Notes: generated by a model not told the origin, from the letters alone. A stretch of DNA of 64,000 nucleotides from Limisphaerales bacterium (GCA_050250555.1 JBFWOK010000008.1:4635-68634); one strand, 5' to 3'. Shown: positions 17,505 through 38,205, counted from the stretch's first letter. Made by a program: numbers and translations.

Positions 17505-18101
17505 ATGGCTGATTTCGCGGGCATCGCAGCGGCGGGGCGGAGCATCGAACGGCTCCTGACCCATTGCTTTGGCGAGGAAGAGCCGGTGGCCGGAAGTCGA
17601 ACCCGCGCTGTGCTCATCCGGACCGCGGACCTGGAACCGACCGCGATCGCGACGTCGATCGGAACCCCGGCGCTTTCGGTTTTCATCTATCGCGTGGATT
17701 TCAATCAGACCATGCGCGCGGCGTGGTCGGCGGTCGCCAGCCAGGATGGAAGGCCTCGCCTGCCCGTGGACCTGCACTTCCTGATCACGCCGTGGGCCAC
17801 GAACGCGGAGCACGAACTCCGCATTCTCGGAAAAGCGATGGAATGTCTCGAGGCCCATCCGGTCCTCAGCGGGCCGCGATTGGATCCGTCGGCGAACTGG
17901 GCGACGAACGAGTCGGTGCAGATCGTGATGGAAGAGATCTCGACCGAGGCGGTGATGAGGACTTTCGACTCGTTGCCAGCCGACTATCGGTTGAGCGTGC
18001 CGTATCTCGCCCGGGTTGTGCGTATCGATGCGCGACGCGCGACACCGGACGGGCCCGTGCTCACGGCGGCGATGGGCGTCACGCCCCGGGCAACCCCATG
18101 A
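17505..18101 (+). CDS. DUF4255 (Pvc16/Afp16-like) tail terminator/cap protein of the contractile injection system
   Basis: 'IERLLTHCF...', 'PALSVFIYRVDFNQTMR' and 'LDLHFLITPWA...ELRILGKAMECL' follow the DUF4255 pattern. It is the first gene of a phage-tail-like array. Confidence 0.75.
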   Translation: MADFAGIAAAGRSIERLLTHCFGEEEPVAGSRTRAVLIRTADLEPTAIATSIGTPALSVFIYRVDFNQTMRAAWSAVASQDGRPRLPVDLHFLITPWATNAEHELRILGKAMECLEAHPVLSGPRLDPSANWATNESVQIVMEEISTEAVMRTFDSLPADYRLSVPYLARVVRIDARRATPDGPVLTAAMGVTPRATP

Positions 18102-18964
18102 ACGAGTTTCTCGCATCCTCCTTCGCGGAGAATGTCCGACGCCTGGCGCTGGGACTGGAAACCCTGGATGCCGGCCGAGGCACGCGGGTCGGGCACCCGA
18201 TCCGGGTGGTGTTCCACGACGCGATCAACGGACTGCCGCGACCGGTGGTGGATCGCCACGATTCGTGTCTTCACGCCTTGTTGTATCAGCCCGGAGTCGC
18301 GGACCGGGTCGACCTGCGGTTTTACGAGGCGGCGCCGCCATTCCCCTCGGGACCCCGGGGTGCGGGGCAGGCGTTGGATTTCGGCAGTCAATTCCGGAGG
18401 GTGCCGCGACGATTCGTTCCGCGACGGATCAGCTTCCCGATCCTGACCCAGGCCCAGGCGGAACTCGCTATCGGAGCCCTCCGGGTGCGAAGACCTTCAC
18501 TGTTCCCGGGGGCGGCCTACGACCTGGATGCTGGGCAGACAGGGGTGCGGGGACGCGTGGTTCAGGCGGGCGTGGCGGTTCGCTGGGTGCGAGTGACCGC
18601 GACGCTGCCCGGAGGCACGCGGGTCGTGGGACGAGCGCATGGGGATGATCGCGGGGAGTTCCTGCTCCTCCTATCGCCCGCGGCGGGGTCGGTGGGAGAA
18701 CTGGGCGATCCCTTCACGGTGCGCATCACGGTGACGGCGCGACCGGCGCCCCCGGTGCCGGACACTCCGGAACGGGTGCTTCGGGATCCCTGGTGGGATC
18801 TGCCGGCGGAGAGTGCCGACCCCTTGGACCCGGGCGATCCGGAACTCGACCCCGTTTCATCCGGGGAGACGATGCCTTCGGGTTACACCGCCACGGTCAC
18901 AAGGGACCTCGAGGTCCCGCTGGGACGGGTCCACGCCGAGACGACCCCATTCATGCTTCCTTGA
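18098..18964 (+). CDS. Hypothetical eCIS-associated protein with a carboxypeptidase-regulatory-like beta-sandwich segment
   Basis: ATGA overlap with the DUF4255 gene. 'GVRGRVVQAGVAVRWVRVTATLPGGTRVVGRAHGDDRGEFLLLL' resembles the CarboxypepD_reg pattern. Confidence 0.5.
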   Translation: MNEFLASSFAENVRRLALGLETLDAGRGTRVGHPIRVVFHDAINGLPRPVVDRHDSCLHALLYQPGVADRVDLRFYEAAPPFPSGPRGAGQALDFGSQFRRVPRRFVPRRISFPILTQAQAELAIGALRVRRPSLFPGAAYDLDAGQTGVRGRVVQAGVAVRWVRVTATLPGGTRVVGRAHGDDRGEFLLLLSPAAGSVGELGDPFTVRITVTARPAPPVPDTPERVLRDPWWDLPAESADPLDPGDPELDPVSSGETMPSGYTATVTRDLEVPLGRVHAETTPFMLP

Positions 18965-36248: not shown

Positions 36249-38205
36249 ACGACTCAGCCATGAGATCGCGCGGCTCGCGGGTCGGCTCGGCGACTTCCTG
36301 GCCGCGACCTTCCCGAGGGCGGAAGGGGTGCTGGCGCAGAACCTGGCGTTCCTGCGGGCGAACGCGAATGCGGCTTCGAACGCGCCGGGTCAGCCGTCAC
36401 GGCGATCGGGCGCGGCGGGAGATGGCCCGGAGCCGCTGGAACAACTCACGGGACCGCTCGGGTTGTCCCAGGCCGAGGTGGACCTCCTTCTGCTCGCGGG
36501 CATGCCGGAGGAGCACGAAGGCTTCTCCGCCGTCCTGCGGAGCCTTCATCCGCGGGGCGAACCCCGGTCCCCGGCGGGGCTGGCCGCCCAGTTGATACAT
36601 GCGGGAAGCCGGGTCGAATTCAGGTCGTGGTACGAGGCGTCGACCGTTCAGCGCCTTGGAATCGTGCGTCTCTCGGGGACGAGCCCGTTTTTCGAGAGAT
36701 CCCTGGAACTGGCGGACGATCTCTGGCCCGCGCTCCATGGCATCCAGGTCTGGCCGGGATTTGTACCTGGCGTGGAAAGCGACGCCCCGGTCTACGGTCT
36801 CCGCGATTGGCTGGATTCCACGCCCGCCCATCGGGCGATGCGGGCGCTCTGCGACGCCCGGCCGTGTTGCATTCTACTGACCGGTGATTCGGAGGAGGCG
36901 GCATTCCAGCGGGGAATCGCGTTGGTGCGGTCCGCGGGCCGTCAGGCCGCTGGGATTCGAATCACGGGGACCCTGGATGCCGACCGGTTCCGGACGCTTT
37001 TGCTGCACGCGCTCGTGAGGCGGGTCGTCCTTGTGCTCCGGTTTTCCCCTTCGGACGGCTCCGGTCAGAGCGACGTTCCGGATGCCGGCGGTCATCCGGA
37101 CACGATCGTGGTCTGCGCGCGGACGGGATCGGTGGCCTTCCGGGGCGCGCGCCCCTTGTTGGGGCTCCCGATGGACAGGATGGGGCCGAAGGCCAGGAGG
37201 GAGATGTGGCGGGAAGCGCTTCCTCCATTCGCGGATTCGGCGGCCTTGCTCGCGGCGCGGTATCCGGTGGAACCAGCCGTGGCGGCGGAGATCGCCGCCG
37301 ATCTGGCGTCCTTGGAATCCACGGCGGAGCGTGCCCCCGGTTTTGACGACGTGGCGCACGCGGTGCGGACCCGGGCTTCGGTGACGCTGGGAGGCGGGAT
37401 CAAACTCATCCGTCCCACGGCGACGTGGTCCCATCTGGTGCTGCCACCGGAGCGAGAGGCCCAATTGCGGGCGGCGATCGGGCGTCTGGATCTCCAGGTC
37501 CGGGTTTTGGACGAATGGGGATTCCTGAAGGACCGACCCGGCGCCCGTGGGGTGCGGATGTTGTTCTCGGGTCCGCCCGGCACGGGGAAGACGCTTTCCG
37601 CGGAAGTCCTCGCTGGAGCCCTGAACGTCGACCTGCTCCTGGTGGACATCTCCCGGGTGGTTTCCAAGTGGATTGGCGAAACGGAGAAGAATCTGGCGGC
37701 GGTGTTCGACACGGCGGAACGGGCGCAGGCGGTGCTGTTCTTCGACGAGGCCGACGCCTTGTTCGGAAGGCGGACGGAGGTTTCCGACGCGCACGATCGT
37801 TACGCCAATCTCGAGACCGCCTACCTCCTGGCCCGGCTCGAACGATTCGAGGGCCTCGCGATCCTCGCCACGAATCTCCGGCAGAACATTGATCCCGCGT
37901 TTCTTCGCCGACTCGAGTTCGTCGTCGATTTCGAGGATCCGGACCGCGAGGAGCGGCAGCGGCTCTGGAACTGCCATATTCCCGACAGGAACCTGCTCGA
38001 TCCCGAAGTGAACCTGGGCGAACTCGCGGCGCTGTATCCCGTCGTCGGCGGGTTCATCCGCAACGCCACCGTCGCCGCGGCGTTTCTCGCGGCCGCGGAC
38101 GGATGTCGGATCGGTCGCAGCCATTTTCTCCGCGCCATACGCCGCGAGTACGAGAAGTCCGGCAGGGCTTTCCCCGGCTTCCCGGCGGGCACCCCTGAGC
38201 ATTGA
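36241..38205 (+). CDS. AAA+ ATPase (Afp15-like eCIS assembly ATPase)
   Basis: Walker A 'GPPGTGKT', Walker B 'VLFFDEADALFG', 'ATNLRQNIDPAFLRRLEFVVDF', with a long N-terminal non-ATPase domain as in Afp15/Pvc15. Confidence 0.9.
   Translation: MSERLSHEIARLAGRLGDFLAATFPRAEGVLAQNLAFLRANANAASNAPGQPSRRSGAAGDGPEPLEQLTGPLGLSQAEVDLLLLAGMPEEHEGFSAVLRSLHPRGEPRSPAGLAAQLIHAGSRVEFRSWYEASTVQRLGIVRLSGTSPFFERSLELADDLWPALHGIQVWPGFVPGVESDAPVYGLRDWLDSTPAHRAMRALCDARPCCILLTGDSEEAAFQRGIALVRSAGRQAAGIRITGTLDADRFRTLLLHALVRRVVLVLRFSPSDGSGQSDVPDAGGHPDTIVVCARTGSVAFRGARPLLGLPMDRMGPKARREMWREALPPFADSAALLAARYPVEPAVAAEIAADLASLESTAERAPGFDDVAHAVRTRASVTLGGGIKLIRPTATWSHLVLPPEREAQLRAAIGRLDLQVRVLDEWGFLKDRPGARGVRMLFSGPPGTGKTLSAEVLAGALNVDLLLVDISRVVSKWIGETEKNLAAVFDTAERAQAVLFFDEADALFGRRTEVSDAHDRYANLETAYLLARLERFEGLAILATNLRQNIDPAFLRRLEFVVDFEDPDREERQRLWNCHIPDRNLLDPEVNLGELAALYPVVGGFIRNATVAAAFLAAADGCRIGRSHFLRAIRREYEKSGRAFPGFPAGTPEH

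Follow-up and report, generated by a model that had tools for sequence, protein, structure and literature searches.

A probable complete contractile injection system of eCIS lineage II, with subtype-IIb gene content and a conserved membrane protein in its baseplate operon, in a Verrucomicrobiota-like genome

In every studied relative of the contractile injection system (CIS) described here, a membrane element decides the mode of action (PMC8894136, PMC12237407, PMC11566945). The Streptomyces particles are cytoplasmic, and a cluster-encoded membrane protein, CisA, is required for their firing (PMC12237407); the haloarchaeal system, an 'archaeal type VI secretion system (T6SS)', is membrane-bound, a mode that correlates with the conserved cluster-associated membrane protein Hbor_38620 (PMC11566945); and in Anabaena one transmembrane (TM) helix of Cis13 decides thylakoid anchoring (PMC8894136). 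Here we analyze a 64 kb stretch of DNA from a Limisphaerales bacterium (GCA_050250555.1, JBFWOK010000008.1:4635-68634), hereafter the window, with all coordinates counted from its first letter. Positions 17505 to about 51950 very probably form a single chromosomal island of 22 plus-strand genes encoding a complete phage-tail-derived CIS of extracellular CIS (eCIS) lineage II, with subtype-IIb gene content and a Verrucomicrobiota-like host. All genes mentioned below lie on the plus strand unless otherwise stated.

The plus-strand gene chain is unbroken from 17505 onward, as judged from the listing of open reading frames (ORFs) and from codon-position GC content. The initial annotation had proposed a complete contractile injection structural locus of seventeen genes at 17505-38205; the locus is supported by profile hidden Markov model (HMM) matches and by matches to solved structures, but the interval holds 16 tightly packed genes, 12 of which match listed Pfam or NCBIfam families. 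Searches with the DUF4255, sheath, tube, Phage_GPD, gp5-type, GPW_gp25 and Baseplate_J profiles upheld the corresponding assignments. The proposed end at 38205 proved too early, as the system runs on to about 51950; DUF4157 is a published marker of eCIS cargo (PMC8213781), and the functional end of the island is therefore placed near 51950. All eight overlapping junctions that had been listed are real when checked base by base, with 4-nucleotide ATGA or GTGA overlaps at 18098, 27410, 28072 and 29694, 1-nucleotide overlaps at 26162 and 32250, and 8-nucleotide overlaps at 26325 and 36241. Seven gene boundaries, those of the genes for the 56-, 362-, 221-, 541- and 130-residue proteins and of two genes for 719-residue proteins, were reproduced by independent gene calls on two metagenome contigs that carry an identical membrane-protein gene. 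The GC content of the window is about 66%, with no break in composition at the CIS locus, which resembles its flanks, and neither predicted promoters nor predicted terminators rose above shuffled expectation.

Related loci were collected by scanning a single genome for each species with the 541-residue membrane protein of the cluster as seed; 80 loci were returned. Gene order was compared for eleven single-copy genes, leaving out the sheath and tube paralogues and the 56-residue gene, and was the same, on one strand, in 80/80 loci wherever the DNA reaches. These loci span at least eight phyla, including Acidobacteriota, Verrucomicrobiota, Planctomycetota, Actinomycetota, Gemmatimonadota, Proteobacteria (Alpha-, Beta- and Gamma-) and Myxococcota, and the actinomycetotal carriers include Streptomyces tagetis, Amycolatopsis, Rhodococcus and Kribbella. 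Among the carriers that can be cultivated are Microbulbifer rhizosphaerae CECT 8799, Pseudomaricurvus alcaniphilus, Caulobacter sp. BE254, S. tagetis and Paractinoplanes maris.

The cluster begins with a DUF4255 protein resembling the Cis16/Afp16 cap or tail terminator (17505..18101; Pfam Pvc16_N, 4.2e-31), in agreement with the initial annotation; this gene is present in 44 related loci, that is, in all those whose fetched DNA reaches that far. The two sheaths and two tubes announced for the locus were also recovered, and Pfam matches together with matches to solved CIS sheaths in the PDB identify them as CIS sheath and gp19-type tube genes. Sheath paralogue 1 (19160..21643, 827 residues) matches Phage_sheath_1 and Phage_sheath_1C at 9e-17 each, and sheath paralogue 2 (22180..24168, 662 residues) matches Phage_sheath_1C at 4.4e-12; the two are 38% identical over their C-terminal 240 residues, and sheath 2 was found in 51 loci. 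Tube protein 1 (21691..22152; Phage_T4_gp19 1.3e-35, TIGR02241 3e-30, CIS5_fam/CIS1_fam partial) is the most conserved gene across the related loci, with identities of up to 91%. Tube paralogue 2 (24171..24650; Phage_T4_gp19 1.6e-31), which is 31% identical to tube 1, had its start corrected to the ATG at 24171, three bases past the sheath 2 stop, the mechanically called ORF at 24272-24625 being out of frame; it is a probable tube adaptor layer. By analogy with Afp3/4/5 and Cis5, tube 2 and sheath 2 would probably make up adaptor layers close to the baseplate.

Sheath 1 is about 170-200 residues longer than nearly all of its orthologues, most of which measure about 620-650 residues, and it carries an extra insert at residues 222-395 or so (about 170 residues). 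The insert is internally duplicated (DNA 19782-19809 and 19893-19920; peptide G.TLVV.IDGG...) and is shared only with a Verrucomicrobia metagenome-assembled genome (L004), whose sheath has 71% identity along its whole length; the insert probably decorates the sheath surface in a lineage-specific way. Among phage sheaths the best match reaches 35% identity over 36% of the protein, in the C-terminal third only.

The next gene (24672..26162) encodes a tube initiator of the Cis7/Afp7 type, with the domain at residues 1-150 (CIS_tube 6.5e-23), confirming the Afp7-like tube fold that had been proposed; its PDB matches are 9rce_H at 3e-3 and 8kea_P, a 'tube initiator', at 0.02. Unlike Afp7-type proteins it has no LysM domain, and the initiator domain is fused to a conserved tail of about 350 residues rich in Ala, Gly and Ser (20, 15 and 12%, respectively). 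The roughly 60 orthologues are mostly 420-570 residues long and end in 'P.W.ALP...CGC.G.C.H', and the length of the tail is conserved.

All members of the baseplate core have profile matches, in line with the hub, spike, gp25, baseplate J and gpI-like wedge of the initial annotation. The gp27/gpD-like hub (26325..27413) matches Phage_GPD at 7e-12 and VgrG_rel at 2.5e-31 over profile positions 52-347, and the gp5/gpV-like spike (27410..28075) matches Phage_base_V at 9e-24 and VgrG_rel at 9e-22 over positions 369-542; each gene thus covers one half of the NCBIfam VgrG-related model, which makes the pair a split VgrG. The spike gene is 96% identical to one from a microbial-mat metagenome. The wedge is represented by a gp25-like sheath-initiating protein, Cis9 (29694..30086; GPW_gp25 8e-25), by a single-copy baseplate J/gp6-like Cis11/Afp11 (30091..32250; Baseplate_J 1.2e-17, TIGR02243 9e-97) and by a P2 gpI/Cis12-like protein (32250..34409; Tail_P2_I 7e-9, CIS12_fam 6.6e-33 partial, TIGR02242 1e-16, phrog_48 'tail' 2e-8), the last with a weakly NHL-like N-terminal extension of about 450 residues. 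The AAA+ ATPase named for the end of the block occupies the Cis15/Afp15 position (36241..38205; AAA 9e-27 at residues 440-564), has intact Walker A (GPPGTGKT) and Walker B (FFDEAD) motifs in its translation, and is found at the same position in 58 related loci.

The combination of a DUF4255/Afp16 cap and an Afp15-type AAA+ ATPase in one cluster with DUF4157 eCIS core proteins (1.7e-30 and 2.1e-27) places the locus in the eCIS superfamily. Within it, the closest solved structures indicate lineage II. The best PDB match of sheath 1 is the Halogeometricum borinquense CIS (9ezm, 1.6e-104), followed by the Streptomyces CIS (8bky at 3.9e-95; 8bky/8bl4 at about 1e-94), and then by Afp3 (6rao, 4e-50), the Anabaena thylakoid CIS (7b5h, 3e-47), AlgoCIS (7adz, 1e-43) and Pvc2 of the Photorhabdus virulence cassette (PVC) particle (6j0b, 5e-43). 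The J protein matches Streptomyces Cis11 (9gtp_1K) at 4e-57 and AlgoCIS (7aeb_G) at just 0.0026.

According to Chen et al. 2019, subtypes IIa, IIb and IIc have a split afp8; afp11 is single in Ia, Ib, IIb and IId; afp10/PAAR is absent from IIb only; IIa and IIb carry divergent forms of afp12 and afp13; lineage II has no afp14, and within it an Afp6 homologue is found only in IIb; and each subtype has two or three conserved domain-less genes (PMC6899500). In the window, afp8 is split as described above, the 30091-32250 gene alone matches Baseplate_J/TIGR02243, and none of the 22 cluster genes matches PAAR, the intergenic gaps being too short for an extra gene. The Afp12- and Afp13-type proteins are divergent, with matches to CIS12_fam (6.6e-33) and CIS13_fam (1.7e-7 and 1.4e-9) that are partial and below the NCBI cut-offs. 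By gene content, the locus would fit subtype IIb alone.

Set beside the IIb loci catalogued in dbeCIS by Chen and colleagues, the locus shares the split VgrG, the single Afp11/J, the absence of PAAR and of Afp14, the divergent Afp12/Afp13, two to three conserved domain-less subtype genes, and an occurrence in Gram-negative as well as Gram-positive phyla; it differs in its enlarged sheath 1. With the Streptomyces coelicolor CIS (IId; 8bky, 9gtp) it shares the second-closest solved sheath, the closest solved baseplate J, and the lack of a tape-measure gene and of resolved classical tail fibres. The Streptomyces system differs in its fused VgrG, its one sheath gene and its PAAR-class IId content, whereas here the VgrG is split and the wedge genes are followed by a soluble helical protein and the ATPase, so that the locus is not of the IId type. 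The Halogeometricum borinquense system (IIa; 9ezm) gives the best PDB sheath match and, like the locus, has no cis14 and has DUF4157 genes in its cluster; it lacks cis6 as well, and differs in carrying two Cis11 copies and a six-TM anchor candidate upstream of its core cluster, in a host whose envelope is an S-layer rather than diderm.

The antifeeding prophage (Afp) and PVC particles (Ia; 6rao, 6j0n) have in common with the locus the Afp16 cap, sheath and tube paralogues, Afp7, Afp9, Afp11, Afp12, Afp15 and cargo genes at the 3' end, and their sheath C-terminal domains match at 1e-39 to 1e-50. They differ in having a fused VgrG, PAAR (Afp10), a tape measure (Afp14/CIS_TMP), a LysM domain on Afp7 and three sheath paralogues, in having no membrane protein in the baseplate operon, and in encoding the cap last, not first as in the window. 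The locus has neither Afp14/CIS_TMP nor a single-chain VgrG with a PAAR tip. The eCIS signature drawn from the cap, the ATPase and the DUF4157 proteins (44641-45963, 47430-51950) stands, while the accompanying attribution to the 'Afp/PVC/MAC family' is not supported, given the absence of a fused VgrG, PAAR and Afp14/CIS_TMP. The word 'extracellular' is likewise unsupported, since the closest solved relatives are the membrane-bound haloarchaeal (9ezm) and the cytoplasmic Streptomyces CIS, far ahead of Afp3. Finally, the Anabaena thylakoid-anchored CIS (7b5h) also has Cis12 and Cis13, and its sheath C-terminal domain matches at 3e-47; it differs in possessing Cis6, Cis10 (PAAR), Cis14 and Cis19, and in carrying the TM helix in Cis13 itself, whereas in the window neither Cis13-like protein has a TM segment and the helix resides in a separate protein.

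That separate protein, a conserved single-pass membrane protein of 541 residues (28072..29697), is encoded between the spike and gp25 genes and overlaps both by GTGA. The transmembrane character assigned to it from the start is borne out by one strongly hydrophobic stretch at residues 395-425. It has more than 1000 homologues, all unnamed and without a Pfam domain, and an exhaustive HMM search gathered 1234 representative clusters (769 at E <= 1e-10), all of about 500-620 residues and of one architecture. In the family alignment the hydrophobic segment is almost invariant, ICSFSIPLITIVA.FVF.LFLPIV...GLWF.LKLKFCIPPS, and is accompanied by eight conserved cysteines and a conserved C-terminal LEYE..VE motif. 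The AlphaFold2 model (predicted local distance difference test, pLDDT, 83; predicted template modelling score, pTM, 0.79) shows an N-terminal domain that is rich in beta structure and bears a long helical hairpin, then a long helix (396-423) and finally a small C-terminal domain; the folded N-terminal domain before the helix amounts to about 390 residues, and the tail is acidic. The protein had no PDB sequence match. Foldseek, run with its fold against BFVD and the PDB, the latter including all solved CIS particles, gave nothing at E <= 1e-3, the best matches being to short helical hairpins only. Streptomyces CisA has a different build and gene position: its N-terminus is disordered rather than folded, it has a TM segment and a C-terminal domain that is substrate-binding-like, and its gene comes after those of the baseplate. 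No sequence or fold relation between the two proteins was detected.

The membrane-protein gene lies between spike and gp25 in 80/80 loci seeded with the 541-residue protein itself. Because that seed makes the count circular, a second sampling was seeded with the spike gene, among metagenome loci with enough downstream DNA (n=62), and a homologue directly follows the spike in 61 of the 62. The exception is L176 (2170-3035), where similarity to the membrane protein begins about 0.9 kb after the spike, which a divergent N-terminus or an insertion may explain. Both close IMG/VR loci (2/2) also carry a homologue between spike and gp25. It diverges in step with gp25, J, I and the spike (Spearman rho 0.54-0.70), and this, together with the synteny with the spike, marks the membrane protein as a core, co-evolving member of the baseplate operon. 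It is a candidate membrane coupler or PAAR substitute.

Along with the membrane-protein gene (28072-29697), the genes at 18098-18964 and 34572-36248 are core genes of the subtype and lack known relatives. The 288-residue product of 18098..18964 is universal at its position, with an orthologue there in 45 loci, and found no match in Pfam, NCBIfam, PHROG or PDB sequences, and a PDB profile search was also empty. The CarboxypepD_reg label it had received has no HMM support, with nothing at E <= 5 for the window copy and just one of 31 orthologues at E = 0.084.

The gene for the 558-residue protein (34572..36248) has 60 syntenic orthologues, conserved in their N- and C-terminal parts and variable and charged in the middle; its start is probably the GTG at 34572, as in the database gene call, with an alternative at 34509 that would give 579 residues. 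Its reading as a putative tape measure had to be abandoned: CIS_TMP reached E = 0.14 in the window copy and none of 34 other orthologues even at E <= 2, and the AlphaFold2 model (pLDDT 81, pTM 0.79) is compact and helical with two disordered loops, unlike an extended ruler. No Pfam domain was found on 34 database homologues, no PDB sequence matched, and the best Foldseek match in the PDB had E = 3. The 8-nucleotide overlap with the ATPase gene suggests that the protein is a partner or adaptor of the ATPase.

No recognisable tape measure was found among the cluster proteins. Streptomyces CIS particles are uniform in length (PMC12237407); since lineage II lacks a tape-measure gene and these particles are nonetheless uniform, the Ala/Gly/Ser-rich tail of the tube initiator becomes a candidate built-in ruler, which is a speculation on our part.

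The gene that adjoins the Afp7-like gene encodes a 56-residue protein (26162..26332; consensus M.VH.DE..SEV..EPE...RTAAEGFDD). It had been listed as a gene from the outset, and rightly so: there are 22 orthologues with a near-invariant C-terminus, and it is called independently on another contig. No match was obtained in Pfam, NCBIfam or PHROG, nor to solved Cis6 plugs in a PDB profile search, and a tie to Afp6/Cis6 found no support in detectable similarity to library families or solved Cis6 chains. The single PDB match of its profile was the C-terminal MIT-interacting tail of CHMP3 (E = 0.0019, low complexity), which is probably compositional (PEPEP plus an acidic helix). CHMP3-type tails are ligands of AAA+ ATPase N-domains, and the match is recorded here because the cluster encodes an AAA+ ATPase.

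Beyond 38205 the island continues with genes of accessory or cargo type. Two successive genes encode Cis13-like proteins, one of 404 residues with a tail-fibre-type N-terminal domain (38224..39438; CIS13_fam 1.7e-7, N-terminal part only), a homologue of which follows the ATPase in 17 loci, and one of 1146 residues (39441..42881; CIS13_fam 1.4e-9 at residues 34-102), which found no match beyond its N-terminus in Pfam, PHROG and other searches and is a candidate long fibre or receptor binder. The two N-termini are paralogous (36% identity over 94 residues, 1e-7), the C-termini differ, and neither protein has a predicted TM segment. A shared N-terminus with differing distal parts is the pattern of fibre-type proteins with a common baseplate-attachment domain. 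Next comes a S-adenosylmethionine (SAM) methyltransferase fused to a zincin-like HEXXH domain (42899..44356; Methyltransf_25 5.6e-20), whose C-terminal part matches Peptidase_U49 (0.0026) and M78 (0.007), both weakly, and which is a candidate cargo or accessory protein.

The two DUF4157/eCIS_core proteins, both candidate effectors, flank a gene for an Lgt-like polytopic membrane protein (46037..47413; LGT 3e-10 partial, four hydrophobic segments), a candidate immunity or accessory factor. The smaller (44641..45963, 440 residues; eCIS_core 1.7e-30) has a 220-residue C-terminal domain without a Pfam match. The larger (47430..51950, 1506 residues; eCIS_core 2.1e-27 at residues 242-319) has a hydrophobic, tape-measure-like middle at about residues 790-950; this middle and the C-terminal 550 residues or so (about 960-1506) have no Pfam match. 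No toxin domain was thus recognised by Pfam in the C-terminal parts of either protein. The larger protein resembles, in a single chain, the effector pair of Sle2 (DUF4157) and Sle1 (related to tape-measure proteins) of SLP, the phage tail-like particle of Streptomyces lividans (PMC13277306).

By analogy with T4 and P2 tails and with the Afp and PVC structures, a baseplate of hub, spike, gp25, J and I would nucleate the tube, around which the sheath would polymerise in an extended, high-energy state, while a DUF4255 hexamer would cap or terminate tube and sheath. The ATPase may assist assembly or cargo loading, and DUF4157-tagged proteins would be the cargo. A trigger at the baseplate would then cause the sheath to contract and would drive tube, spike and cargo through a membrane.

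The competing explanations differ in where the machine would fire. We lean, tentatively and with a little less than even confidence, towards a machine that the protein encoded between the spike and gp25 genes would couple to the producer's membrane, with T6SS-like or Streptomyces-like intracellular firing. The reasons are the presence of a membrane protein in the baseplate operon, the absence of lysis genes from the window and the fact that the nearest solved relatives are not extracellular. Somewhat less probable, and still a serious contender, is a true, freely released extracellular CIS. It would assemble in the cytoplasm, leave by lysis, attach to its target by means of the Cis13-like fibres and deliver DUF4157-associated toxins into it; in that case the membrane protein would be an assembly factor or else a part of the particle, inserting into the target membrane as a substitute for PAAR or a translocon. 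The full eCIS signature of DUF4255 cap, AAA+ ATPase and DUF4157 agrees with release, as do the two Cis13-type N-termini with different C-termini and no TM segments and the documented presence of eCIS-associated toxins in Verrucomicrobia (PMC8213781), and PAAR is missing exactly where the new conserved gene adjoins the spike gene. Yet genes for lysis or release are absent from the 64 kb, none of the closest characterised relatives is extracellular (PMC11566945, PMC12237407), and a 390-residue globular domain with a TM helix would make an odd spike tip, with no fold similarity to PAAR or to solved CIS parts. A smaller share of probability falls to some other firing mode or to one that is undecidable.

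Several points weigh against producer-membrane coupling and against the placement of the locus itself. The two TM-less Cis13-like fibre candidates and the DUF4157 cargo suit a released, target-binding eCIS. The membrane protein has only about 110 residues past its helix, too short to span a diderm envelope, and this leaves a T6SS-like route through the outer membrane unexplained. The helix is modelled at low confidence (pLDDT 44-60) and is unusually conserved, and it might be buried in the particle or inserted into a target membrane, rather than anchored in the producer. The subtype call is built on gene content, not on Afp11 phylogeny. Our literature search found no experimental study of any IIb system. 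The initial annotation had called such particles essentially uncharacterised experimentally in the PVC superphylum (Planctomycetota, Verrucomicrobiota and relatives), but the novelty is lower than this implied: the gene order is widespread, and eCIS loci in Verrucomicrobia have already been catalogued (PMC8213781, PMC8910223). A bolder version of the coupling hypothesis is unlikely: in it the membrane protein replaces PAAR, couples the spike or baseplate to a membrane and makes the machines membrane-bound, whether T6SS-like or self-targeting, and the Ala/Gly/Ser-rich initiator tail ending in CxC...C.H is the missing length ruler of lineage II.

Two further explanations carry very little weight. 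A defective prophage tail or R-type tailocin is highly improbable: the structural genes are all of myophage-tail ancestry and there is weak similarity to phage sheaths, but the DUF4255 cap, the AAA+ ATPase and DUF4157 are eCIS rather than tailocin markers (PMC8213781), the GC content matches that of the flanks, and a tape measure with chaperones, a lysis cassette, an integrase and a tRNA are all missing. The gene order, moreover, recurs across at least eight phyla, and the 10-kb flanks, as probed with the proteins of the window, never showed head genes. The main ORFs of the whole 64 kb gave no match to head (capsid), portal, terminase, integrase or lysis genes, and the initial annotation was right that this is not a prophage. 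It also rightly set aside a canonical T6SS, an alternative to which we give a negligible probability: sheath, tube, VgrG-like and gp25/TssE-like parts are held in common, but the window contains no TssJ/L/M, TssA/F/G/K, TssB/C-type sheath or ClpV, and has J/I-type wedges, a DUF4255 cap and phage-type single-chain sheaths instead.

The island has housekeeping genes in its flanks. Upstream, dnaN stands at the start of the window, and further genes encode ResB-like, glycosyltransferase, DegT aminotransferase, PSCyt1/PSCyt2/PSD1 and DUF1501 proteins as well as an IlvD/Edd dehydratase and a GntP permease; on the downstream side, prepilin-type and VCPO-like proteins and a Ser/Thr kinase are encoded. 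The best named relatives of dnaN are from Verrucomicrobiae (80% identity) and Pedosphaera (68%), which make Verrucomicrobiota a more likely host group than Planctomycetota; with the flanking PSCyt1/PSCyt2/PSD1/DUF1501 genes, they bear out the PVC-superphylum background that had been perceived in the sequence. The window opens inside dnaN (5-958), and the cumulative GC skew rises over its first 38 kb. The gene dnaN usually adjoins dnaA and the replication origin; because the window opens in dnaN, the CIS island would lie about 17 kb from the likely origin region. Scans of the 64 kb for tRNA genes and Rfam families returned no matches. The downstream Ser/Thr kinase is fused to an RDD membrane domain (56416-59508), and an ORF with a weak RHS-repeat match lies near the end of the window (62589-63914, minus strand).

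Two families of palindromic elements are interspersed with these genes. A 106-nucleotide element resembling repetitive extragenic palindromic sequences or miniature inverted-repeat transposable elements (REP/MITE) occurs in five intergenic copies (17348-17453, 34429-34534, 44515-44620, 6030-6135 and 13293-13398). Its ends are CATGAACC...GGTTCATG, octamers of CACGGAGG make up its arms, and the double octamer gives 20 matches where 1.8 are expected; folding energies of the copies range from -56 to -69 kcal/mol (z -5.7 to -9.3). We considered these repeats as att sites or cassette borders and rejected the idea, as copies also stand among housekeeping genes at 6.0 and 13.3 kb, which makes this a genome-wide REP/MITE-like element and not a CIS-specific one. 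In the island one copy precedes gene 1, one separates the Cis12-like gene from its successor and one stands ahead of the first DUF4157 gene, positions from which they could punctuate transcripts. There is also a second palindromic element, about 120 nucleotides long, at 44352-44475 (-82 kcal/mol, z -8.4), with a copy, 85-87% identical, 8.5 kb downstream at 52848-52955. Both DUF4157 genes lie between the two copies, along with the Lgt-like gene and some small ORFs, and the pair may mark an exchangeable effector cassette or be another dispersed repeat.

Taken as a whole, the locus is one more copy of a catalogued eCIS subtype whose gene order is widespread, and at the same time a clean, complete example of an eCIS lineage for which no experimental work was found and in which three core genes and the conserved tail of the tube initiator are without known relatives or folds. 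It also illustrates that an 'eCIS' label derived from gene content is not proof of extracellular action. Two questions about lineage II are made concrete on these genes: how tube length is set without a tape measure, and what makes a particle released, membrane-bound or cytoplasmic.

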